Positions 29,542 to 43,127 are shown, counted from the first letter of the stretch. The stretch is 43,773 nt of DNA from Pseudomonadota bacterium (GCA_039033735.1 JBCCCA010000001.1:1-43773), one strand, 5' to 3'. Program-made: numbers and translations. Notes: a model not told the origin generated them from the letters alone.

Positions 29542-30603
29542 ATGACCCTGATCACGATGCACTCGCGCATCCACTTTGCCAGCAACATCCTGGAGGAGGC
29601 TCTTCGGGCCGAGATCGACGACCGGCGTCCTGTGGCCCCAGTCCTGATCTATCCCGATGCCTTGGACGGGAGCGAGTTCCTCTCTCGCGTCGAGGAAGGG
29701 CTGCTGAGTTGCAACAAGGTGCACCACTGCATGATCGCACCCAAGCAAACGAAGTATGACACTGCCGATCTTGTCATGGCTTATGCCGACAAGCATGCCG
29801 TTGATCTGATCATCGCCATGGGCAGCGCCGAAGCTGTCATTCATGGTCGCAAGTGCCGCCATGCGATTGGCATGTCACGATATGCTGCCACCACGTGGCC
29901 CGAACGCGGCGTCTTGCAGCATCAGGAGCTTGGGCCTGAATTCTTCATTATTCCCGGCATCACCGGCCTTCCGGACCCTTGTCTGGACACGACGGGCACG
30001 CAAAGGCTCAAGGGAACGCCGCCCACGGTCATCATTTGCGACCCCACTGTCATTGAGAAGGCACAGGAGGCCGAACTGGCGCGCACCATTGCCCAAACCG
30101 TCGGGCGCTGCATGACTGTGTTGACGGCTGATACATTCAATCCGCTGGCAGACGGGCTGGCCATTGACGCGTTGACCCGCATTCACAGCGGAAAAGACAG
30201 CCGCAATCCGCGCGATCTGATGGCCGCCATGTTGAACGGCGCTATTGCGCAGCAAAAAGGGCCCGGCTTCGTTGAAGCGTTTGGCTATAGTTTTGTCAAA
30301 GCCACCGGTCGCGCTGTGGACAGTGCACTGCTGCACCGGGTGCTTTTGGCCCGCATGCTGGCCTCGGAAAAATCCAGCAATCACGAGGTAATCGGTCGGG
30401 TTCTGGGATTGCCAAAGGAGGTGAAAATAGCCGATTTCATTGATAACTTCTGGCAAGAGTTCACACTTCCCGACAATCTGCGTGACATCGGCATGGAGTG
30501 GGAAGAAGTCTCGGAGACACTTGATTTCATGGAGCCCCGCTTTGGCGCGCCACAGATTGGGTCCTCCTGGGAAGTCCGTCAGATGCTGGCCGAGGCGTAT
30601 TGA
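29542..30603 (+). CDS. Iron-containing-alcohol-dehydrogenase-fold protein with apparently degenerate cofactor motifs
   Basis: Length and layout resemble Fe-ADH/DHQS-like proteins. The segment IIAMGSAEAVIHGRK occupies the position of the GGGSxxD NAD motif. No obvious SD. An alternative ATG lies five codons downstream. Confidence 0.5.
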   Translation: MTLITMHSRIHFASNILEEALRAEIDDRRPVAPVLIYPDALDGSEFLSRVEEGLLSCNKVHHCMIAPKQTKYDTADLVMAYADKHAVDLIIAMGSAEAVIHGRKCRHAIGMSRYAATTWPERGVLQHQELGPEFFIIPGITGLPDPCLDTTGTQRLKGTPPTVIICDPTVIEKAQEAELARTIAQTVGRCMTVLTADTFNPLADGLAIDALTRIHSGKDSRNPRDLMAAMLNGAIAQQKGPGFVEAFGYSFVKATGRAVDSALLHRVLLARMLASEKSSNHEVIGRVLGLPKEVKIADFIDNFWQEFTLPDNLRDIGMEWEEVSETLDFMEPRFGAPQIGSSWEVRQMLAEAY

Positions 30604-32049: not shown

Positions 32050-32183
32050 TCAAGGCGGTCATTCATACCCAATCGTCTCTTTTTGGGCGATTTGATTTGC
32101 CAAGATAGCGACTGCTATTGTCTACTTTCAGCGTCTCCATACGCTTCTCTCAGAAGGACGCGGTGGGGCCTGGGAGGACAAAA

Positions 32184-32996
32184 ATGAGTAAAGCTTTGGC
32201 AGTGGGCCACGGCTCGTACGGACGCGCGGCGCTGTACGATCTGGATCGCCCCATTACCACACATGCGCATCGCGAAGGCCACCTTATTTTCTATGTTGGA
32301 GGAGACACACCGCGCATGCGCGTCGGCTCGGATGAAATCATCTGTAACAGTGACACCGCGGCAGCTGTCAGCCCTTGGATGCCTCATTCATTTGAATCCA
32401 ATCAGCGTTGTCTGTCCCTGACGCTTTACATCAAACCGATGTGGTTTCTCGAGAATACCAATTCATCTGATTTTGCACTGAACTTCGGGCGTACATTGCT
32501 GAAGCTCACACCCGAAATCCAGACGACCGTTGCCAAGCTGACGCATCAAATGATGACAGATATCTACGACGCAAGCGTCGAGCATCTGCTGATCGAACTG
32601 ACATCCCTGTGCTATGCCTTGTCGTGGCGTAACATCAAGGCCCCTGCCTTTGACGCGAACACTATGCGCAGCAGTGACTTTCGCATTCGCCGTTCGCAGA
32701 AACTGATGGTGAATTACTTGTCCGACCACGAGGGTCTGGACCATCTCGCGCGCGAGGTCGGACTGTCGCGGCCACATTTCTTCAAGCTTTTCAAAAAGCA
32801 GGCCGGTGTGACGCCGAACGTTTATTTCAACACGCTGCGGTCAGAACGGGCGATTGCAGACCTGATGGAAACCGATAAGTCCGTGACCGAGATCGCTTAT
32901 GATTTGGGCTTTGCAAGCCAGGCGTCTTTTACGCGGTTCTTCTCTCATAATGTGGGAATTGCGCCGTCAGATTACCAACGGGTGGCGCGCCAGTAG
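32184..32996 (+). CDS. AraC-family transcriptional regulator
   Basis: C-terminal double HTH (LAREVGLSRPHFFKLFKKQAGVTPNVYFN, IAYDLGFASQASFTRFFSHNVGIAPSDYQ). The ATG at 32184 is preceded by GGGAGGA. Confidence 0.85.
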   Translation: MSKALAVGHGSYGRAALYDLDRPITTHAHREGHLIFYVGGDTPRMRVGSDEIICNSDTAAAVSPWMPHSFESNQRCLSLTLYIKPMWFLENTNSSDFALNFGRTLLKLTPEIQTTVAKLTHQMMTDIYDASVEHLLIELTSLCYALSWRNIKAPAFDANTMRSSDFRIRRSQKLMVNYLSDHEGLDHLAREVGLSRPHFFKLFKKQAGVTPNVYFNTLRSERAIADLMETDKSVTEIAYDLGFASQASFTRFFSHNVGIAPSDYQRVARQ

Positions 32997-33159: not shown

Positions 33160-34179
33160 GTGAGGGACTTTATTGAGCGTCACTCAATTTGGTCTGCAAT
33201 CATTGCGCTTGTTGCGTTGGTCTTGCTTTACCTCATCTTTGCGATCTGGCCGGAATGGTTGATTGACGCCATTGGGCGCAAGAAGGTCTTCTTGAACGCA
33301 TTGTTCAACGGTATCACTCTGGGTGGTCTCTATTTCCTAGTGGCCTCGGGGTTCACACTGATCTTTGGGCTGATGCGCAATGTGAATATGGCGCATGGAG
33401 GTCTATACCTGCTGGGCGGGTATATCGGATTTTTTGTGGCCGATGCGACCGGGTCTTGGCTTTTGGCGTTTCCAGTTGCGTTTCTGGTCGCCGGTTTTCT
33501 GGGCGTCATTCTGCAGCTTACGGTGTTTCGCCGGATGGAAGGACAGGATCTGCGCCAGACGCTGGTGACGATCGGTATCTCAATCGTGCTGGCGGACTTG
33601 ATGCTATGGGGCGTTGGCGGGGACTTTTACAATATAAACCCGCCCAGCTGGTTGTCGGGTCCGATGGAAACCGGTTTGGTGACATCCCAACGTGTGCGTT
33701 CGTCCGGTGAGGTCGTCACGTCTTATCTCAAGTATCCGATGGTACGGATCGTGATTTTCCTGGCTTCGGTGGCGATTGGGCTGGCGATGTGGCTGGTTCT
33801 GAACAAGACCCGGGTCGGTATGTTGATCCGGGCTGGCGTCGATGACCGCGACATGCTGAGCGCTACAGGCGCGCGCATTCAGCTGGTGTTTGTGGGCGTT
33901 TTCTTTTTCGGCGCAGGTCTGGCGGGGTTGGCCGGTGTGGTGGGGGCCACGTTTCAATCTGCCGCCCCGGGCGAGGATACAAGGTTCCTGCTTGCCTCGC
34001 TTGTCGTGGTAATCGTAGGGGGGATGGGGTCGATCCCCGGCGCCGCTCTTGGCGCATTGTTGATCGGTCTGGCCGAGCAATTCGGCTCCGTCTACTTCCC
34101 AACCTACGCGGTTGTGCTGACATTCCTAATCATGGTGGCGGTGCTGGCGTTCCGCCCCCAGGGTTTGATGGGCCGGTGA
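33160..34179 (+). CDS. Liv/HAAT-family ABC permease (LivH-like) with a ~45-aa N-terminal extension
   Basis: LFNGITLGGLYFLVASGFTLIFGLMRNVNMAHG is typical of LivH. GTG start preceded by AAGGAAG. Confidence 0.85.
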   Translation: MRDFIERHSIWSAIIALVALVLLYLIFAIWPEWLIDAIGRKKVFLNALFNGITLGGLYFLVASGFTLIFGLMRNVNMAHGGLYLLGGYIGFFVADATGSWLLAFPVAFLVAGFLGVILQLTVFRRMEGQDLRQTLVTIGISIVLADLMLWGVGGDFYNINPPSWLSGPMETGLVTSQRVRSSGEVVTSYLKYPMVRIVIFLASVAIGLAMWLVLNKTRVGMLIRAGVDDRDMLSATGARIQLVFVGVFFFGAGLAGLAGVVGATFQSAAPGEDTRFLLASLVVVIVGGMGSIPGAALGALLIGLAEQFGSVYFPTYAVVLTFLIMVAVLAFRPQGLMGR

Positions 34180-34183
34180 CGAC

Positions 34184-35236
34184 ATGGCTCTGAGCGAAAC
34201 AACGACATCCCCAAACGAGGACACAAAGGTCTGGATCGAACGGGTCCCGGCACCTTACTGGATCGTCGGTGTGATCCTTTTGATCATCCCGTCCTTCGCG
34301 TCCGACTTTGTTATGTTCCAGATTTTCGGATGGACTTTCATTCTGGGGATGATCGCCACGTCGCTGATGTTTCTGGGCGGTTACGGGGGCATGGTGTCCC
34401 TGGCTCAAATGACTTTTGCAGGGGTCGCGGGCTATATGGTCGCGATCTTCGGCGAAAGCGCGATTGACACGATCTCGCTTGGATGGCCGTGGTATATTGC
34501 GATCCCGTTGGCCTTGATTATTGCGATGCTGTTTGCGACCGCGATCGGCTGGCTCGCCGTGCGCACTGAGGGCATCTACACGATAATGATCACCCTTGCG
34601 ATCGCGGCTGCGTTTTTCTACTTCACGCGCCAGAACTACGACATATTCAACGGCTTTCAGGGGTTTAATTCCGTCCTGCCCCCGCCACTGTTCGGTGTGG
34701 ATTGGCGGGGGCCCGAGGCGTTTTATTATCTGACACTGTTCTGGGCGGCTGCGACCTATTTTGCGGTGCTCTATCTGTCGCGTGCGCCATTTGGTCTTGC
34801 GTTGCAGGGGGTGCGAGACAATCCGCGACGCATGGCCGCCCTTGGCTACAACGTCACCGCCCACCGCGTTGCGGCCTATGCGTTTTCCGCCATCCCGGCC
34901 GGGGTGGGAGGCATCCTTCTGACGTGGCAATCGGCGCAGATCAGCCCAGGCACTGTGGGCATTCAACCGGCCATCGACATCCTGATCATCGCAGTGGTCG
35001 GTGGCCTCAGCCATCCGGTCGGCGCGTTTATCGGTGCGTTCCTTTACGTGGTGCTCAAGACCTTTGCCGTTGATTTCCTGATTGCCATCGGGCTGAGCGG
35101 GGACCGCTTTCAGCTGCTGATCGGCCTAGGCTTTTTGCTTGTCGTGGCATTCTCAGAAGACGGTCTGCTGGGACTTTGGAAGAAACTGCGGGACAGCCGC
35201 AAACGCGACCCTCTTACCGGTGAGGTGCGGGAATGA
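34184..35236 (+). CDS. Liv/HAAT-family ABC permease (LivM-like)
   Basis: Multi-TM protein carrying the LivM-type RDNPRRMAALGYN motif. Confidence 0.85.
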   Translation: MALSETTTSPNEDTKVWIERVPAPYWIVGVILLIIPSFASDFVMFQIFGWTFILGMIATSLMFLGGYGGMVSLAQMTFAGVAGYMVAIFGESAIDTISLGWPWYIAIPLALIIAMLFATAIGWLAVRTEGIYTIMITLAIAAAFFYFTRQNYDIFNGFQGFNSVLPPPLFGVDWRGPEAFYYLTLFWAAATYFAVLYLSRAPFGLALQGVRDNPRRMAALGYNVTAHRVAAYAFSAIPAGVGGILLTWQSAQISPGTVGIQPAIDILIIAVVGGLSHPVGAFIGAFLYVVLKTFAVDFLIAIGLSGDRFQLLIGLGFLLVVAFSEDGLLGLWKKLRDSRKRDPLTGEVRE

Positions 35237-36003
35237 ACGCGCACCCCAATACCGGAACACAAAACGCGCTGGAACTGCGCGGCATGTCCAAGCGGTTCGG
35301 TGCGCTGGCGGCACTGAGCGATATCGAGCTATCCGTGCGCCCCGGCGAGCGGCGCGCGGTTCTTGGCTCGAACGGCGCGGGCAAGACGACGTTGTTCAAT
35401 TGCATAACGGGGGATTTCCCGCCCTCTGAGGGGGCGATCCGCTTTTTTGGCGAGGATATCACGCGCTTTCCGGCCCATGAGCGCATCCGTCGTGGTCTGC
35501 GCCGAACCTATCAGATTTCACTGTTGTTCACTGGTCTGACTGTGATGGACAACGTCTATCTGTCCTGTCTTGGTGTTTCGCGAGGGCGGTTCTCGTTCCT
35601 GCGAGCGCGAAGGGACGACGCGCTTGTCGCCTCGGCCGAGGAGTTGGTTGAAACGGTCAATCTTTGGGATGTGCGCGACACGCTGGTTAACGAACTAAGC
35701 TATGGTCAGCAACGCCAGCTCGAGATTGCCATGGCCCTGTCTGGTGCGCCGCGTTTCATTTTGTTTGACGAACCCGCCGCCGGACTGTCGCCAACCGAAC
35801 GCAGCGAGCTGATCGAGATCCTGACCGGGCTGCCCGGTCATATGGGTTACATCATCATTGAACACGACATGGACGTGGCCCTGCGCGTTTCGGAGTTTGT
35901 GACCATGATGCATAACGGGCGCATCTTCAAAGAGGGCAAACCCGCAGAGATTGAAGAAGACCCCGAAGTCCAGGCGCTTTATCTGGGGGGCGGCGATGAG
36001 TAG
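35233..36003 (+). CDS. Liv/HAAT-family ABC ATP-binding protein (LivG-like)
   Basis: Walker A GSNGAGKTT, signature LSYGQQRQLEIA and Walker B ILFDEPAAGL. ATGA overlap with the permease gene. Confidence 0.9.
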   Translation: MNAHPNTGTQNALELRGMSKRFGALAALSDIELSVRPGERRAVLGSNGAGKTTLFNCITGDFPPSEGAIRFFGEDITRFPAHERIRRGLRRTYQISLLFTGLTVMDNVYLSCLGVSRGRFSFLRARRDDALVASAEELVETVNLWDVRDTLVNELSYGQQRQLEIAMALSGAPRFILFDEPAAGLSPTERSELIEILTGLPGHMGYIIIEHDMDVALRVSEFVTMMHNGRIFKEGKPAEIEEDPEVQALYLGGGDE

Positions 36004-38170
36004 TCCCAGCCTCGAAATCCGCGACCTCAATGTCTACTATGGCCAGTCCCATGCCTTGCAAGGTGTGAACCTGACGCTGGATCACGGCGTGCTTTCAGTC
36101 GTGGGGCGCAATGGCATGGGCAAGACCACCATGTGCAAGGCGATCATTGGGATGGAACCGATCGCGTCTGGGTCTATTTCGTTCAATGGCCAGTCTTTGG
36201 CGGGCATGGCGTCGTCCGAGATTGCGCGGGCCGGGATCGGATATGTGCCGCAAGGGCGCAGGCTGTGGCGCTCGTTGACGGTGGATGAACACCTCAGGCT
36301 GGTGGAGCGGCGCAGGGGTGCTTGGACGATCGAGCGCGTTTATAGTGTCTTTCCGCGTCTGGCAGAGCGCAAGTCAAATGGCGGTTGGCAATTGTCCGGG
36401 GGTGAACAGCAGATGCTGGCCATCGGACGCGCACTTTTGCTGAACCCCAAACTGCTTGTGATGGACGAGCCGACCGAAGGTCTGGCCCCAGTGATCGTCA
36501 ATCAAGTCGCCGAGATGCTGGTGCGTTTGGGCCAAGAGGGTGACATCGATGTGCTCGTGATCGAGCAGAACATCGGTGTTGCGTGCGACGTGGCGTCCGA
36601 TGTGGCGATTATGGTCAACGGAAGGATCAATCGCGTGATGGACAGTGCCACTCTGGCCGCTGACCGCGATTTGCAGCAAGCCCTTCTGGGCGTCGGACGT
36701 CATGCCCATGATGAAACAGATGGCGTGGCGATTGGCAGTCCAAAGGGTACGACGGATACCGAACGCGTCAAGCGGCAGGACAGCTATTCGGTGGCCCGCA
36801 TCTATGATGTGAACCCGACTGCCCCGACAAGGTGGAGCCCGGCCGTCCCGATCTCAATCCTTGAGGGCGCAGCACGCTCGGTCACCGAAACCCCCACAAC
36901 ATCTGGCGAGGTCGTTCCCATGGTCGCAACAAAGGCCCAGTCTGCGCGCGGTGCCGTTTATGTCTGTGGTACGTTTGACACCAAGGGACGCGAGCTGTCC
37001 TTTATGGCAGACATCATCAAGGCGCAGGGCCTGACCGTTAAAACCGTCGACCTGTCGACCACAAGCGGGCAATCCAGCGCCGATGTCCCGCCGCACGTCA
37101 TTGCCTCCAACCATCCGCGCGGAACCTCTGCCGTGTTTACCGGCGACCGTGGCACGGCGGTTGCCGGCATGACCACGGCGTTCGAGCGTTGGATCGCCCA
37201 GCAATCGGACATAGCTGGCCTTATCTCGGCCGGGGGCTCGGGGGGGACTGCGCTGGTGTCTCCTGCGTTTCGCGTGCCGCCGGTGGGCGTGCCCAAGATG
37301 ATCGTCTCAACCGTGGCCAGTGGCAGCACCGAACAATATGTCGGTCCTGCCGACATCGCGATGATGTATTCGGTTGCGGATGTGCAGGGCATCAACTCGA
37401 TCACACGTGAAGTGCTGGCCAATGGCGCCCATGCCATCGCAGGCATGGCCAAGGGGCGGTTGAATGCCAAGCCGACGGACGATGACAAACCGGCCATCGG
37501 CCTGACCATGTTTGGCGTGACGACGCCATGTGTGCAGCAGGTCGTCGCAAATCTGGAAAAGGACCATGACTGCCTTGTCTTCCATGCCACCGGGGTGGGC
37601 GGTCGATCCATGGAAAAACTGCTGGATAGCGGCATGTTGAAAGCGGTTCTTGATCTGACCACGACTGAAGTCTGCGACTATGTGGCGGGCGGTGTGTTCC
37701 CTGCGACAGAGGACCGTTTCGGGGCTTCGATCCGGTCGGGGCTGCCGTTTATCGGATCGTGCGGCGCGCTTGACATGGTGAATTTCGGAGCCCCCGACAC
37801 GGTGCCCGAGAAATATAACAACCGGCTGTTTTACGAACACAATCCGCAGATCACCTTGATGCGCACCACGCCTGAGGAAAATGTTGCCATGGGCCGTTTC
37901 ATCGCGGAGCGGTTGAACCAGATGACGGGGCCTGTGCGCTTTTTCTTGCCAGAAGGCGGAGTGAGCATGCTGGATGCCCGGGGCAAACCGTTCTGGGATC
38001 CCGATGCCAATAAAGCGCTGTTCGAGACACTTGAAAGCACAGTCAAACAAACGCCCAACCGCCAGTTGGTGCGCGTTCCCAATAACATCAATGACCCAGA
38101 ATTTGCGGAGCTGATCATTCGGACCTTCCGGTCGCTCAACGCAAAGTCTTCGCGGGCAAAAGGAGCCTAG
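35996..38170 (+). CDS. Fusion protein: LivF-type ABC ATPase (aa ~1-235), a ~85-aa linker, and a UPF0261 / Tm-1-like ATP-binding domain (aa ~320-724)
   Basis: The N-terminal part has GRNGMGKTT, LSGGEQQMLAIGRAL and LLVMDEPTEGLAP. The C-terminal part has UPF0261 hallmarks: GTFDTKGREL, GGSGGT, PKMIVSTVASG, FGVTTPC, FHATGVGGRSME, GALDMVNFG and TLMRTT. It is a single uninterrupted frame. The ATG at 35996 overlaps the livG-like stop by 8 nt. Confidence 0.8.
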   Translation: MSSPSLEIRDLNVYYGQSHALQGVNLTLDHGVLSVVGRNGMGKTTMCKAIIGMEPIASGSISFNGQSLAGMASSEIARAGIGYVPQGRRLWRSLTVDEHLRLVERRRGAWTIERVYSVFPRLAERKSNGGWQLSGGEQQMLAIGRALLLNPKLLVMDEPTEGLAPVIVNQVAEMLVRLGQEGDIDVLVIEQNIGVACDVASDVAIMVNGRINRVMDSATLAADRDLQQALLGVGRHAHDETDGVAIGSPKGTTDTERVKRQDSYSVARIYDVNPTAPTRWSPAVPISILEGAARSVTETPTTSGEVVPMVATKAQSARGAVYVCGTFDTKGRELSFMADIIKAQGLTVKTVDLSTTSGQSSADVPPHVIASNHPRGTSAVFTGDRGTAVAGMTTAFERWIAQQSDIAGLISAGGSGGTALVSPAFRVPPVGVPKMIVSTVASGSTEQYVGPADIAMMYSVADVQGINSITREVLANGAHAIAGMAKGRLNAKPTDDDKPAIGLTMFGVTTPCVQQVVANLEKDHDCLVFHATGVGGRSMEKLLDSGMLKAVLDLTTTEVCDYVAGGVFPATEDRFGASIRSGLPFIGSCGALDMVNFGAPDTVPEKYNNRLFYEHNPQITLMRTTPEENVAMGRFIAERLNQMTGPVRFFLPEGGVSMLDARGKPFWDPDANKALFETLESTVKQTPNRQLVRVPNNINDPEFAELIIRTFRSLNAKSSRAKGA

Positions 38171-38173
38171 CCA

Positions 38174-38998
38174 ATGCATGATCGCAAAGACCTGATGAAG
38201 AAATTCCGAGCCATGCGTGATGCGGGTGAGCCGATCATTGGCGGTGGCGCCGGGACGGGCCTGTCTGCCAAATGCGAAGAGGCGGGCGGCATTGATCTTA
38301 TCGTGATCTACAACTCGGGACGCTATCGCATGGCGGGCCGCGGGTCTCTGGCCGGGCTGATGCCGTATGGTGATGCAAATGGCGTCGTGATGGAAATGGC
38401 GGGCGAAGTTCTGCCCGTGGTCGAAAGGACGCCTGTTCTGGCAGGTGTTTGCGCAACTGATCCGTTCCGGCTGATGGACAAGTTCTTAGATCAGATAAAG
38501 GCCACCGGATTCTCGGGTGTGCAGAATTTTCCGACCGTCGGCCTGATCGATGGCAATTTTCGCGCCAATCTTGAAGAGACCGGCATGGGCTATGCCCACG
38601 AGGTCGAAATGATCCGCATGGCTCACGAACGCGATCTGCTCACCACACCATACGTTTTCAGCGAAGACGACGCGCGGGCCATGGCCGGCGCAGGCGCGGA
38701 CATTATCGTGGTGCATCTTGGCCTGACCACAGGCGGGTCGATTGGGGCCGAAACGGGCTGCACGTTGGAACAGGCGCCGGCTTTGACGGATGCGTGGGCC
38801 GGCGCAGCGCTTGAGGTCAATCCGGACGCGATCGTTCTGGTTCACGGAGGGCCCGTCGCCATGCCCGAAGACGCGGAATATGTTCTTAAGAATACCAAAA
38901 ATTGCCATGGGTTTTATGGCGCTTCGTCGATGGAACGACTGCCGACAGAAATCGCACTGCGCGAACAGACGGCACAGTTCAAGAAGATTGGGCGTTAA
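38174..38998 (+). CDS. Phosphoenolpyruvate-hydrolase-like TIM barrel (TIM-barrel signal-transduction family; equivalent to the C-terminal domain of plant Tm-1)
   Basis: [55 protein letters not shown] and [17 protein letters not shown] present. It starts 3 nt after the fusion gene stop. Confidence 0.75.
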
Positions 38999-39009
38999 GG
39001 GAGGCATTC

Positions 39010-42000
39010 ATGACTGGTCAAATCATCGGACAACTAATCTTGTGGCTGATCCTCGCAGTCATTGTGATTTTCATCACGTACTGGGTGATGCACTGGCTGT
39101 ATCGCCGTTCGACTAAGGAAGTCGCGTTCGTACGAACCGGTTTCCTTGGGGAACGTGTTGTGATCGACGGCGGTGCTTTCGTGTGGCCCATCATTCATGA
39201 CATCACTCCGGTCAACATGAACTCGCTTGATTTGGCCATCGAGCGGGTCAGGGAGGAGGCGCTGATCACCGCGGACAATCTGCGGGTCGATGTGAATGCA
39301 GAGTTCTATGTCCGCGTCCGCGGCACCAAAGAGGCGGTCAGCCTCGCGGCCTCGTCGATGGGGCGGCGGACTTTGGAACCTGAACGTCTGAACAGTCTTC
39401 TATCGGGTAAATTCATCTCGGCCCTGCGAACGGTTGCGGCCGAGATGACGCTGGAAGAACTGCATACCAAGCGTTCCGAAGTCACGGATCGTGTGCTTCA
39501 GATTGCGCAGGAAGGTCTTGATAAGAACGGGCTGGAACTGGAATCTGTCGCCATTACCGACATCGATCAGACGGACATCCAGTTCTTCAATCCGTCCAAC
39601 CGCTTTGACGCCATCGGCTTGACCTCTGTCATCGAACAGGTCGAGGCACGCCGCAAGATGCGTAACGACATCGAGCAAGACGCGATCATTCAGATCCGCA
39701 CGCGCAACCTCGAAGCCGAAAAGCAAACCCTTGCCATCGAGCGTGCCTCGGAAGAAGCGCGCCTTGAGCAGGAACGCGACGTCGAATTCCGCCGCGCACA
39801 GCAACGTGCTGAACTGGCCCGCGAGCGCTCTGAGCGTGAAAAGGACGGCGAAGAGGCGACGCTGATCAACCGCGAAGCAATTGAAACCGCACGCATTACC
39901 AATGAAGAGCGGATCGCCGAAGCCCGCATTGCCTCGGAACGCAAAATCCGACAGCAGGAAATCGAGCGCCAGCGCGTCATTGATGAAGCTGAAATCTCAA
40001 CGCGGGAAGCGGTGGAGAAAGCCCGCATCGGGCAGGAGAAAAGCCTCGCGGAAACGCGCATCAAGACCGAAAAGGATACGCAATCGGCGGAAATTGCCGC
40101 CAACGAAGCGGTTGAAAAGGCCCGTATCGCTCAGGAAAAGGCGTTGCAAGAGGCGCGGATCGACAAAGATCGCGAGACCCAATCCAAAGAGATCGAACGC
40201 CAACGTATCGTGGACGAGGCCGGCATTTCGGCCAAGGAAGTGATCGAAAAGGCTCGCATCGCCCAAGAACGCGAAGTGACCGAAGCGCGCATCTCACTTG
40301 AGCTGAACACACGCGAACAGGAAATCGCGCGTAACCTGGCTGTGGATCAGGCGACGATAGCAGCGCAGGAAGCGGCCGAAAAGTTGCGTATTGCGCAAGA
40401 ACGCGGCGTCAATGCCGAGCGGATTGCATCGGACAAGGCCACGCGGGAACTTGAGATCGAGCGGCAAAAGGCGCTGGAAGAAGCGCAAATCGCGTCGGAT
40501 CAGGCAACTGAAGCCGCCCGGATTGCGCGCGAAAAGGCACTGTCGGTCGAGCGTATCGCAGCCGAGCAGGACACCCGCGCCCGTGAGATCTTGCGACAGC
40601 GCGAATTGGACGCACAGCAGATCGTTGCGAGCGAGGAGACGTCGAAGGACCGCATTGCGCAGGAACAGAGGGTGCGCGAACTTGAGATAACGCGGAACCA
40701 GGCCGTTGAGGCCGCCGAGATTGCGTCGAAAGAGGCCGTCGAGGCTCAACGGATTGCACAGGAAGCTGCGACTTCCCTGCGTCAGATCGAAAGTAATGAG
40801 AAGACCTCGGCGCGTGACGTAGAACGCGCGGCCGCCGTCGAAGCAGCCGAGATCGCGAAAGCCGAAGCATTGGAAGCGGCCCGCATCGCCAAGGAGAAGA
40901 AGCTGGCCGCCGAACGCATTGCTTATGAGCAGGATATGCGCGAGCGAGAGATTTCCCGAAATCGCGCGATTGATGTGGCCAATGTGAGCGCCAGTGAAGA
41001 GGTTAGTCACGCGCGGATCGAGGAAGAAAAACGCACGCGTGCCCTTGAGATTGCCAAAGAGGCGGAACTGCGGTCGCGCGAGATCGAAAAGCAGGAGGCC
41101 GTCGAGGCCGCCGAGATTTCGTCGCGCCGTCTGGTCGAACAGCAGCGTATCGAAAAGGAGGCGGAAACAACCGCCGAAAAGATTGCCCGCGATCAAAAGA
41201 TCCGCGCTCTCGAAATCGAACGCAACAAGGCCATGGACGCGGCCCAGATCGCAGCGGACGAGGCCGTCGAAGCAGCCCGGGTGTCCAAGGAAAAGGCCGT
41301 CGATGCCGAACGGATCGGCGCCGAGCAGGAACTGGATGCCAGGAAGCTGGAGCGCAAGAAGGTGCTCGAGCAGTTGGAGATCGGCCGTGTTCAGGCTTTG
41401 CGCGAAGCCGAGATCGCCAGTCAGGAAGAGGTCGAGCGCGCCAAGATCGCGTCAGAACGCGGATTGGACGATGCGCGCATCGGTCACCAAACCGAACGTC
41501 GTCGTCTGGAAATCGAGCGCGAAAAGACGGTCGAGCAAGCCGCGATGGACAAGGCCATCGCGCTTTACCAGAAATCGCTTGATGAAAGTGCCGCAGCCGT
41601 CGAGGCCGAAAATGCCAAGGCACGTGCCCTGGAAGCGGCCGAAAAGGCCAAGACGCTGGCCGAAACCGAAAGTGCCAATCGCGCCAAGACGTTGGAAACC
41701 ATTGCTGCGTCAACAGATGCCGAACGGATGCGTCTGATTGCCGAGGGCGACAAGGTGCGCGCGGCTGTCGAAGCGGAAGCGGCGCGGTTGATAAACGAAG
41801 CCGAGAATGTGCTGTCGGATGAAAGCCGTCACAGCCTCTTTAAACGTAAAATGCTGGAGCATGTCGAAGGCATCATCGCCGCTTCTGCCAAGCCGCTGGA
41901 GAATGTAAGCGATATCAAGATTATGCAGCTTGGTGGGGCTGGCACCCAAGGGCTCGACTGGGCCAACGGGGGTGACGGAGGCTCGGGCGGTGGTTCAGGT

Positions 42001-42231
42001 GGCGGCACAAGCCCCACGGACGAAGTCATGAATTCGGCCCTGCGCTATCGCGTCCAGGCTCCGATGGTCGACAGTCTGATGAAGGATATCGGCATAGACG
42101 GGTCCAACGTCGCGAAGTCCGACATCTTTCGCTCGGCCTCGGACATGACGCGCGCCAATTCGGAAATCCAACGCGCGGAAGCCGCCAAGAAGGCAGCAAA
42201 AGCCAAAGACAGCGACAAGGACAAGTCATAA
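39010..42231 (+). CDS. Flotillin-family (SPFH/band-7) membrane scaffold protein, 1073 aa, with a greatly expanded central repeat region
   Basis: An N-terminal TM helix and SPFH domain (EVAFVRTGFLGERVVIDGGAFVWPIIHDI) are followed by the repeat region. The C-terminus is flotillin-like (LFKRKMLEHVEGIIAASAKPLENVSDIKIMQLGG). The ATG at 39010 is preceded by AAGGGAGG; the ORF from 38902 is a 5' artefact overlapping the previous gene. Confidence 0.85.
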   Translation: MTGQIIGQLILWLILAVIVIFITYWVMHWLYRRSTKEVAFVRTGFLGERVVIDGGAFVWPIIHDITPVNMNSLDLAIERVREEALITADNLRVDVNAEFYVRVRGTKEAVSLAASSMGRRTLEPERLNSLLSGKFISALRTVAAEMTLEELHTKRSEVTDRVLQIAQEGLDKNGLELESVAITDIDQTDIQFFNPSNRFDAIGLTSVIEQVEARRKMRNDIEQDAIIQIRTRNLEAEKQTLAIERASEEARLEQERDVEFRRAQQRAELARERSEREKDGEEATLINREAIETARITNEERIAEARIASERKIRQQEIERQRVIDEAEISTREAVEKARIGQEKSLAETRIKTEKDTQSAEIAANEAVEKARIAQEKALQEARIDKDRETQSKEIERQRIVDEAGISAKEVIEKARIAQEREVTEARISLELNTREQEIARNLAVDQATIAAQEAAEKLRIAQERGVNAERIASDKATRELEIERQKALEEAQIASDQATEAARIAREKALSVERIAAEQDTRAREILRQRELDAQQIVASEETSKDRIAQEQRVRELEITRNQAVEAAEIASKEAVEAQRIAQEAATSLRQIESNEKTSARDVERAAAVEAAEIAKAEALEAARIAKEKKLAAERIAYEQDMREREISRNRAIDVANVSASEEVSHARIEEEKRTRALEIAKEAELRSREIEKQEAVEAAEISSRRLVEQQRIEKEAETTAEKIARDQKIRALEIERNKAMDAAQIAADEAVEAARVSKEKAVDAERIGAEQELDARKLERKKVLEQLEIGRVQALREAEIASQEEVERAKIASERGLDDARIGHQTERRRLEIEREKTVEQAAMDKAIALYQKSLDESAAAVEAENAKARALEAAEKAKTLAETESANRAKTLETIAASTDAERMRLIAEGDKVRAAVEAEAARLINEAENVLSDESRHSLFKRKMLEHVEGIIAASAKPLENVSDIKIMQLGGAGTQGLDWANGGDGGSGGGSGGGTSPTDEVMNSALRYRVQAPMVDSLMKDIGIDGSNVAKSDIFRSASDMTRANSEIQRAEAAKKAAKAKDSDKDKS
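39859..41541 (+). repeat. Coding tandem repeat: about 51 consecutive 33-nt (11-residue, hendecad) units, partly organised as 44-aa super-repeats, inside the flotillin gene
   Basis: I parsed 48 units by hand from 39958 to 41541 with no indel (EIERQRVIDEA / EISTREAVEKA / RIGQEKSLAET / RIKTEKDTQSA ...). Position 2 is I, V or L in every unit. Three weaker units precede them. The units are diverged at the DNA level. Confidence 0.85.
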
Positions 42232-42668
42232 TGGCGCGTGTGTTCGTCTCGACGGTGATCAATGCCCCGGCCGATCGCGTGTGGGATCGCATCCGCGATT
42301 TCAACGGGTTGCCCAAATGGCACCCGAGGATCCGCGACAGCCGGATCGAGGACGCACTGCCCGCAGATCAGGTCGGCTGTATTCGCAATTTCAACCTGCA
42401 GAATGGCAACAACATCCGCGAACAGCTTTTGGGGCTAAGCGATTACGACATGTTCACCACCTACGCGATCCTCGACAGTCCGATGCCGGTCGAAGACTAC
42501 ATCGCCACGCTTCGGCTGACGCCTGTCACCGATGGTGCGCGCTGCTTCGCGGAATGGTCGGCGGAGTTCTCGGTCGATCCGGATATCGAATCCGAATGGA
42601 TCGCCAATATTGGCGGTGACGTGTTTCAGGGCGGGTTCGATGCATTGAAGCGGCATTTCGGCGGGTAG
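42231..42668 (+). CDS. SRPBCC/START-fold (polyketide_cyc2-like) protein, copy 1
   Basis: VINAPADRVWDRIRDFNGLPKWHP is typical of the Bet v1-like superfamily. Its ATG shares one nucleotide with the flotillin TAA (TAATG). Confidence 0.75.
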   Translation: MARVFVSTVINAPADRVWDRIRDFNGLPKWHPRIRDSRIEDALPADQVGCIRNFNLQNGNNIREQLLGLSDYDMFTTYAILDSPMPVEDYIATLRLTPVTDGARCFAEWSAEFSVDPDIESEWIANIGGDVFQGGFDALKRHFGG

Positions 42669-42680
42669 GGGCGCAGCGCA

Positions 42681-43127
42681 GTGGTCAAGGTCTATCGCAG
42701 CACCATTCTGGAAGCGCCCATCGAGGTGGTCTGGGACATCTTGCGCGACTTCAACGGGCATGACCGCTGGCACCCGCTGATCGCGCGTTCCGCAGTCGAG
42801 CGTGGGTATCCATCCGATAAAGTGGGCTGCGTGCGCAGTTTCGAGCTGCAGGACGGTTCGAAATTGCGGGAACGTTTGTTGACACTGAGCGATCTGGAAA
42901 CCGCATTCAGCTACTGCCTGCACGACACGCCCTTGCCGCTGTTCAACTATGTGGCCCACGTGCGCCTGACGCCCGTCACGGATCAGAACTGGACGTTCTG
43001 GGAGTGGGAAAGCCGCTTCGACCCGCCGCCCGACCGCCGCGATGAATTGACAGCCTTGGTGGGCGAAAACGTATATCAATCCGGCTTCGATGCGATCCGG
43101 GCGACGCTAGAACTGGAGAGCGAATGA
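42681..43127 (+). CDS. SRPBCC/START-fold protein, copy 2 (tandem paralog)
   Basis: ILEAPIEVVWDILRDFNGHDRWHP. It appears collinear with copy 1 over much of its length. GTG start. Confidence 0.7.
   Translation: MVKVYRSTILEAPIEVVWDILRDFNGHDRWHPLIARSAVERGYPSDKVGCVRSFELQDGSKLRERLLTLSDLETAFSYCLHDTPLPLFNYVAHVRLTPVTDQNWTFWEWESRFDPPPDRRDELTALVGENVYQSGFDAIRATLELESE

Follow-up and report, generated by a model that had tools for sequence, protein, structure and literature searches.

What is built by a bacterial flotillin whose central helix is far longer than that of E. coli YqiK, and which rule governs that length? The question is raised by a single gene, 39010..42231 (+), in a 43,773-nt stretch of DNA from a Pseudomonadota bacterium (GCA_039033735.1 JBCCCA010000001.1:1-43773; this whole stretch is referred to as the window). 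The gene encodes a YqiK-type (SPFH2) flotillin of 1073 aa. A previous sequence-only reading of the window had described a flotillin enlarged by in-register hendecads, i.e. 11-residue repeats, between an ordinary N-terminus and an ordinary C-terminal domain. We observed that this description was correct and that all the extra length lies between the SPFH and Flot domains. We further observed that the length of this region follows the rule 207+11n in the family, and that two hydrophobic seams run along roughly opposite faces of the helix.

The hendecad array and its two hydrophobic seams

The domain order was established using Pfam. The SPFH/Band_7 domain (PF01145) was matched at aa 38-187 (39121..39570, E=3e-18). 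The C-terminal match was to the Flot domain of flotillins (PF15975; aa 899-1029, 41704..42096, E=4e-32) and covered the full profile, positions 1-124. Both lie on the plus strand, as do all features of the flotillin gene and its operon given below. No NCBIfam model matched the protein. An N-terminal hydrophobic membrane anchor (aa 5-28, 39022..39093) precedes the SPFH domain and is followed by YRRSTKE. This putative transmembrane (TM) helix was called from the sequence and from a helix in the AlphaFold2 (AF2) model (aa 3-33). By the positive-inside rule, the rest of the protein would be cytoplasmic. When the AF2 model was searched with Foldseek, the human flotillin complexes 9l3g and 9bq2 ranked first (E=2e-11), and prohibitin (PHB), stomatin, HflK/C, erlin and major vault protein cages were matched as well.

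Between 39958 and 41541 the reading frame encodes exactly 48 x 11 residues (aa 317-844) with no insertion or deletion, as had been claimed, and the residue preferences given for positions 1, 2, 8 and 11 agreed with our counts. Position 1 was R in 19 units, E in 18, Q in 4 and K in 3, with G, T, D and N once each, while position 2 was I in 44, V in 3 and L in one. Position 8 was V (17), L (12), T (11), I (4), M (2), A (1) or R (1), so that V/L/T/I/M/A occupied it in 47/48 units, and position 11 was A in 23/48. Compared with shuffled sequences, identity autocorrelation had z-scores of 10, 17 and 15.5 at lags of 11, 44 and 88 residues, respectively. Unit typing resolved the core into 44-aa ABCD super-repeats and two variants of 33 aa (aa 361-393 and 526-558), in agreement with the grouping first described.

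The register is not confined to this core. A parse with a position-specific scoring matrix gave 49 consecutive in-register units starting at aa 306. When the frame was counted from the end of the SPFH domain over aa 229-930, position 2 was I/L/V/M in 55/64 units and position 8 was I/L/V/M/T/A in 58/64. The register spans aa 229 to about 930, beyond the interval previously given, and register counts, composition, anchor spacing and AF2 together define a proline-free helical tract of 702 residues (aa 229-930, 39694..41799). Over aa 229-900 (672 residues) there are zero Pro and 8 Gly. The composition is 19.5% Glu, 19.3% Ala, 12.5% Arg and 6.5% Lys, with a net charge of -28, and pairs of opposite charge at i/i+3 and i/i+4 are in excess (168 versus 119+-9 in shuffles).

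A helix with 11 residues in three turns has 3.67 residues per turn and, in coiled-coil theory, a slight right-handed twist. In classical hendecad coiled coils the buried residues (a, d, e and h) all lie on the same side of the helix, and the resulting hydrophobic period is 3.67. The 11-mers of amphipathic helices at lipid surfaces also have one broad hydrophobic face (period about 3.67), and often form 22-mers punctuated by proline. We therefore estimated the hydrophobicity spectrum of aa 229-900. The power was 58.6 at period 5.5 and 61.7 at period 2.75, against a shuffle 95% level of 8.5, whereas it was 5.7 at 3.67 (below that level) and 1.3 at 3.5. The 685-aa ortholog had the same pattern of periods. 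Since the power is at 5.5 and 2.75 and not at 3.67, the hydrophobic residues lie on two opposite faces. On an 11/3 wheel with Ile2 at 0 degrees, Ala11 falls at 164, position 4 at 196 and V/L/T8 at 229 degrees. Conservation was highest at positions 2 (0.95), 4 (0.87), 1 (0.84) and 11 (0.78), which fall at about 0 and at 164-262 degrees, and lowest at positions 3, 7 and 10 (0.59-0.63), the Ala/Glu stripe at 65-131 degrees. The helix has two hydrophobic seams on roughly opposite faces, and this is the pattern that a helix needs to bind one neighbour on each side.

The sequence-only reading had taken the 11-residue period as the signature of an 11/3 coiled coil, and also of membrane-surface amphipathic helices. 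The period itself was borne out for the first of these, but the one-sided core that should accompany it was absent. The second was not supported. Helices of the apolipoprotein, alpha-synuclein, perilipin or LEA type, coating or remodelling the membrane around the flotillin, would indeed have an 11-residue period, and super-repeats of 22 or 44 residues are typical of that class. However, the tract has no hydrophobic moment at 3.67 residues and only about two hydrophobic residues per 11, placed on opposite faces. It also carries a net negative charge, is not punctuated by proline, and is homologous to the solvent-exposed wall of a cage. We consider such a membrane-coating role very improbable.

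Other flotillins were examined for their hydrophobic periods as well. In a CC1 fragment of human flotillin-1 (residues 176-344) the only significant period was 2.21 (power 13.7, where the 95% level of shuffles was 7.7), and weaker peaks at 2.22 were seen in a 606-aa relative and in YqiK. As 2.21 is close to 11/5, this hints that the Glu/Ala alternation of flotillins is itself locked to the 11-residue frame.

Relatives, length rule and selection

Relatives were collected by a genome scan with one genome per species. A relative was found in 208 species and the best 80 were taken; all of these best 80 encode proteins of 984-1168 aa. Their hosts are the Roseobacter group/Paracoccaceae, Roseibium/Stappiaceae, Hoeflea, Nitratireductor, Ahrensia, Thalassobaculum and a few gammaproteobacterial Granulosicoccaceae. 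Most carriers are marine Alphaproteobacteria, and the closest orthologs (95% identity) are from metagenome-assembled genomes (MAGs) of Paracoccaceae. The giant form is widespread in marine Proteobacteria. When the full protein was searched against a protein database, the relatives recovered were all about 50% identical and mostly 685 aa long, so that the orthologs described here come from the genome scan. A representative protein library gave no usable frequency, since giants were masked in it by fragmentary cluster representatives (the longest full-length entry was 897 aa). Two separate contigs of one MAG (JBCCDG01, P01_A01_bin.79; L026 and L031) each carry a giant flotillin of the 702-residue class described below (1081 and 1089 aa), and the genes on either side are the same; the two flotillins are either a paralogous pair or the product of a mixed bin.

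Giant flotillins as a kind have been known since 2009, and the window protein is a further member. Hinderhofer et al. 2009 (BMC Evol Biol 9:10, PMC2636767) described 'giant SPFH2 proteins' of 800-1000 aa with an expanded coiled coil. The window protein belongs with these giant SPFH2(b) flotillins by its size and by the location of its extra length. In the passages searched, that paper gives length and a coiled-coil prediction for the giants, and we found there no repeat unit, periodicity, length rule or operon for them. The sequence-only reading had allowed that flotillins of about 1000 aa with this block might be common and already described. They are indeed widespread and the giants had been named, but the prior account came without an analysis of periodicity. 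Our literature search returned no paper that joins flotillin with hendecads or with Roseobacter, and SPFH combined with 11-residue repeats gave nothing relevant. Within the limits of the literature searched, the 11n rule, the two-stripe period of 5.5, the positional conservation of units and the operon appear to be undescribed.

To compare lengths, we took the spacing between two conserved anchors, one closing the SPFH region (aa 228) and the other opening the cap region (aa 930). In 78/79 orthologs the spacing was 614, 658, 691, 702, 713, 746, 768 or 790, and in one it was 656. The 702 class comprised the query and 35 others, and the 790 class 27 species. Among cultured carriers, Roseobacter sinensis WL0113 and Roseisalinus antarcticus CECT 7023 belong to the former, Roseibium album CECT 5095 and Sulfitobacter sp. 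JB4-11 to the latter, while the spacing in Sneathiella chungangensis is 339. Among the 79 orthologs every difference in length, except that of the 656 protein, was a multiple of 11. In a MAFFT alignment the indels were blocks of 11, 22, 44 or 88 residues at about a dozen sites, with one exception, a 2-residue deletion outside the core. The 790 class gained its additional 88 residues through an old tandem duplication of the two super-repeats next to them; the copies are now 57% identical (for example L042, aa ~548-760). This duplication shows how the array grows.

The rule extends beyond the giants. The shorter relatives from the protein database had mostly a spacing of 339 (the 685-aa proteins), with a range of 207-619, and E. 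coli YqiK (confirmed as 553 aa) had 207. Across the wider family including YqiK, 110/119 spacings were congruent to 9 modulo 11, like that of the query. A further 7/119 shared an offset of +3 (spacings 419-562) and differed among themselves by multiples of 11. In this sub-lineage (P0001, P0002, P0005, P0007, P0008) the hendecad array has one conserved 25-residue discontinuity (22+3, or 11+7+7), which accounts for the shift. The family rule is L = 207+11n with n=0-53, where n=37-53 within the giant clade, n=45 in the window protein and n=0 in YqiK. YqiK shares with FloT (YuaG) of B. subtilis and with the window protein the order TM helix, SPFH domain, long helix and Flot C-terminal domain. It has the same two anchors and the same two-phase hydrophobic frame, I/L/V/M being enriched in phases 0 and 6, and the difference between 553 and 1073 aa lies in the wall region, as 45 hendecads.

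Could the block be an assembly artefact, or a neutral tandem expansion that slipped recently? We found no point that supports this, and the comparative data refute it. Tandem Repeats Finder detected no DNA tandem repeat within the coding sequence. Units 132 nt apart had 49% DNA identity, and the longest in-phase exact match was 15 nt. The same array was also present in isolate genomes, complete genomes and long-read chromosomes. Within the 702 class the whole tract aligned without gaps at a mean between-species identity of 0.74, whereas units 44 residues apart within one protein had an identity of 0.36. Since units are closer to their counterparts in other species than to units 44 residues away, the units are positional orthologs and have not been homogenised. 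In comparison with the closest ortholog (L004, dS about 0.93), the ratio of nonsynonymous to synonymous substitution rates (dN/dS) was 0.011 in the SPFH domain and about 0.03 in the repeats. Repeat number did not vary freely among near relatives either, as 38/39 ortholog pairs that were at least 95% identical in the SPFH domain had equal lengths. We give the artefact or slippage explanation practically no credence.

Up to about 25 changes of length occurred across the tree, essentially always by multiples of 11. Since the length shifts repeatedly (614-790 among orthologs) and yet in steps of 11 residues, the phase (length modulo 11) is under far tighter constraint than the exact length. The earlier proposal of selection on register and not recent slippage was thus upheld; its proposal of selection on length or phase stands for phase, and to a lesser degree for exact length.

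These results also bear on the possibility that the tract is an ER/K-type single alpha-helix (SAH), i.e. a monomeric rigid spacer or ruler that does not pack against other helices. Its content of Glu, Arg and Lys, the excess of charge pairs and the lack of proline would all suit such a helix. However, a SAH needs no hydrophobic seam, while here Ile2 is 95% conserved and V/L/T recurs at position 8. The conservation (0.74 identity, dN/dS 0.03) is far beyond what a spacer requires, and a spacer would accept indels of any length, whereas only multiples of 11 were seen. We regard a free-standing spacer as quite improbable, if less so than a membrane coat.

The repeat block as a proposed extended cage wall

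The best structural match for the window protein is the 44-mer cage of human flotillin-1/2 (9bq2, 9l3g). In its wall, 44 parallel helices of 186-189 aa form a single layer, a right-handed barrel that lacks heptads, carries charges both inside and outside (PMC11260169, PMC13000311), and is consistent with the two-faced hendecad pattern seen here. Human flotillins are lipid-anchored hetero-oligomers, whereas the window protein has a TM helix. Across the SPFH family the wall helices are 44-189 aa long, those of human flotillin being the longest reported, and this length 'likely influences the overall size and number of subunits'.

We think it on balance probable that the repeat block lengthens the flotillin wall helix (CC1) by 45 hendecads, within a single-layer right-handed helical barrel. 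The tract of aa 229-930 would then comprise the cage-wall helix and the start of the cap helix, and the wall helices would pack side by side between the membrane-bound SPFH ring and the C-terminal cap. Each 11-residue unit would form three helical turns, with the invariant Ile of position 2 on one lateral face and a groove made by V/L/T8, A11 and position 4 on the other. Since the two would face opposite sides, each helix would be able to bind both of its neighbours. The Ala/Glu-rich stripe (positions 3, 7 and 10) and position 5 would point to solvent on the two surfaces of the wall. At 3.67 residues per turn, both interfaces would be kept on nearly straight, slightly right-handed lines, and a right-handed barrel wall combined with this twist would lead to a hendecad code and to a length quantum of 11 residues. 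The rotational register between the SPFH base, the lateral seams and the cap would survive only insertions of whole hendecads, which would explain why lengths in the family follow 207+11n. By subtraction from YqiK, the wall would have about 685 residues, i.e. a helix of about 100 nm and about 3.6x the longest solved wall. The resulting cage or tube would stand on the cytoplasmic face of the inner membrane and would be several times taller than the 22-nm human cage (estimated at 50-85 nm, depending on tilt).

The same helix could in principle serve as a right-handed hendecad coiled-coil stalk, or as a small closed barrel of 2-8 chains, that holds the flotillin C-terminal domain about 100 nm off the membrane. 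The stalks of tetrabrachion and of the NadA/YadA autotransporters share the 11-residue period and the expected slight right-handed twist. The strict periodicity with no heptads and the absence of proline would be in keeping with such a stalk, and by geometric reasoning the 131 degrees between I2 and V8 would suit the interior angle of a barrel of 7-8 helices. However, tetrabrachion and NadA/YadA have one buried face (a, d, e, h), while the tract has two opposite stripes and no significant signal at 3.67. A small barrel would be lined by the arc from I2 to V8, which is charged throughout (positions 1, 5 and 9). In the solved flotillin the homologous helix is an element of the wall and not a stalk, and the window protein retains the cap domain by which the 44-mer barrel is closed. 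We consider a stalk or small barrel unlikely, although it is the strongest of the structural alternatives.

The helix was examined further by modelling. The AF2 monomer, computed from a 57-sequence alignment, had a predicted local distance difference test (pLDDT) score of about 90 in the SPFH domain and was helical throughout aa 198-932, with three low-confidence breaks. The breaks at aa 382-396 and 542-555 vanished when aa 300-620 were run as a single sequence (a continuous helix, pLDDT 84-89), and that run broke instead at G466, which is not conserved. We regard these breaks as fold-back artefacts of the modelling and have drawn no conclusion about hinges from them.

Two glycines are of a different kind. 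Among orthologs of the 702 class, G818 was present in 36/36 and G825 in 33/36, and the other six glycines were not conserved. They lie in two adjacent units, KIASERG818LDDA and RIG825HQTERRRL (aa 812-833, 41443..41508), and R817, G818 and L819 are nearly invariant across the wider family. These glycines may mark a conserved bend near the top of the wall. The surrounding motif, S-x-R-G-L-D-E-A-R-I, hardly varies, the 685-aa relatives included, and the bend could correspond to those ('hoops') described in human CC1.

We also modelled the axial stagger between two parallel neighbouring helices, using a crude home-made Debye-Hueckel model with clamped distances. The electrostatic optimum fell at 11-13 residues in 45/45 parameter sets and was deeper than in 200/200 permutations of the unit order. 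It was the same in all 79 orthologs modelled (the query counted) and in two shorter relatives, and packing in register was repulsive. Taken at face value, the model would give a tilt near 60 degrees, which we treat as a prediction only.

Several points weigh against an extended cage wall. There is no precedent for 44 helices packed laterally over about 100 nm, and the human wall narrows from 32 nm to 19 nm within just 186 residues, so that the geometry here must differ from it. The separation of I2 and V8 is 131/229 degrees and not 180, an angle that, taken by itself, would suit a small closed barrel too. Neither E. coli YqiK nor human FLOT1 had a significant peak at 5.5, the human CC1 fragment having the 2.21 peak only; because of this, the link to the solved wall rests on homology and phase, and we make no claim to have demonstrated the two-stripe pattern in a solved structure. 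The AF2 monomer was of low global confidence (predicted template modelling score 0.32), with the helix folded back on itself in four segments. The stagger model is home-made, and the orthologs to which it was applied are not independent. Searches of the PDB gave no structure of any bacterial flotillin assembly. Finally, no NfeD/YqiJ partner was found, as tblastn with E. coli YqiJ, a search of limited sensitivity, was blank in the window and in the 80 loci; there is also no room for an NfeD gene between the flotillin and the genes that flank it.

An extended wall would resemble the major vault protein in being a large closed cage in which an SPFH-like domain is followed by a cap barrel of parallel helices. 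That protein is eukaryotic and mostly soluble, however, and the height of its wall comes from repeated beta domains and not from a long helix. Recent electron cryo-microscopy work proposes that the length of the SPFH wall helix sets cage size and subunit number, and the structures available span 44-189 residues. The orthologs described here form a natural series, in one conserved operon, from about 207 to 790 residues between the anchors in steps of 11 residues, with the window protein among the long ones. Such a series makes a rule relating length to geometry directly testable, and the sequence rule of 11n with two opposite seams would be a simple code for single-layer helical barrels.

The conserved operon and minor features

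The flotillin gene lies within a run of genes on the same strand. Two LivH/M-type ABC permeases (33160-34179 and 34184-35236, Pfam) are followed by an ABC ATPase (35233-36003, Pfam) and by a second, LivF/UrtE-like ATPase (aa 36-175) fused to UPF0261, a Tm-1/MarK-like kinase (aa 335-728; 35951..38170, Pfam and NCBIfam). A PEP hydrolase-like gene of the TIM-barrel type (38174..38998, Pfam E=4e-131) precedes the flotillin. Two SRPBCC (Polyketide_cyc2) genes (42231-42668 and 42681-43127) lie downstream, and the start codon of the first shares 1 nt with the flotillin stop. No paralog was seen beside the flotillin.

This arrangement is conserved. The permeases and the ATPase were found upstream of the flotillin in 66-73/80 loci, and the UPF0261 part in 79/80. 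The PEP hydrolase-like gene was likewise present in 79/80, ending about 14 nt before the flotillin start, and in 79/80 loci the flotillin was flanked by this gene and by one or two SRPBCC genes. The 685-aa ortholog of Sneathiella has the same gene arrangement. Since the same ATPase-UPF0261 fusion is called there as a 750-aa product (L082, 2914-5166), it is, as judged from the gene calls, a conserved fusion and not a missed stop. The order permease, permease, ATPase, ATPase::UPF0261, PEP hydrolase-like, flotillin, SRPBCC, SRPBCC (33160-43127 in the window; L001-L080 and L082) is kept in Rhodobacterales, Hyphomicrobiales, Thalassobaculum, Sneathiella and the gammaproteobacterial Granulosicoccaceae, with neighbour identities of 66-85%.

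In PMC2636767, SPFH2 operons are described with a typical NfeD partner, and yqiK is paired with the NfeD-like yqiJ. In contrast, the neighbours here are an ABC importer, UPF0261, the PEP hydrolase-like gene and SRPBCC genes. Recent work has identified UPF0261 as a kinase that acts on aromatic monomers (MarK; PMC12624787). The flotillin assembly would probably be associated with the co-encoded Liv-type importer, the ATPase-UPF0261 fusion and the PEP hydrolase-like and SRPBCC proteins. The ortholog series points to an uncharacterised link of a flotillin with a transporter-kinase operon in abundant marine bacteria. Tentatively, one could go further and picture closed towers attached to the membrane, about 20-30 nm wide and 50-85 nm tall, whose height would be digital in the number of hendecads. 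These would enclose the ABC importer together with the UPF0261 kinase, the PEP hydrolase-like enzyme and the SRPBCC proteins, as a membrane-bound nanocompartment in which a hydrophobic or aromatic substrate would be taken up and undergo its first processing step. We hold this full picture to be doubtful.

Some minor features of the gene complete the description. The open reading frame extends over 38902..42231, and the actual start is the ATG at 39010, 12 nt past the stop of the upstream gene (38996-38998). A Shine-Dalgarno sequence, GGGAGG (38999..39004), lies 5 nt before this ATG. Within the Flot domain, DIKIMQL (aa 968-974, 41911-41931) would by its position be the beta-strand of the cap; no strand was predicted there in the AF2 monomer. 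The Gly/Ser stretch and Lys-rich tail of the sequence-only reading are both present. The former is a low-complexity linker, GGDGGSGGGSGGG (aa 987-999, 41968..42006, AF2 pLDDT <50), and the latter, AEAAKKAAKAKDSDKDKS (42175..42228), forms the C-terminus.

Further upstream, a plus-strand open reading frame of 353 aa (29542-30603) is located between genes for a periplasmic binding protein and an aldehyde dehydrogenase and had no Pfam match at E<=1e-5. An AraC-type regulator (32118-32996) lies between the block containing this open reading frame and the flotillin operon.

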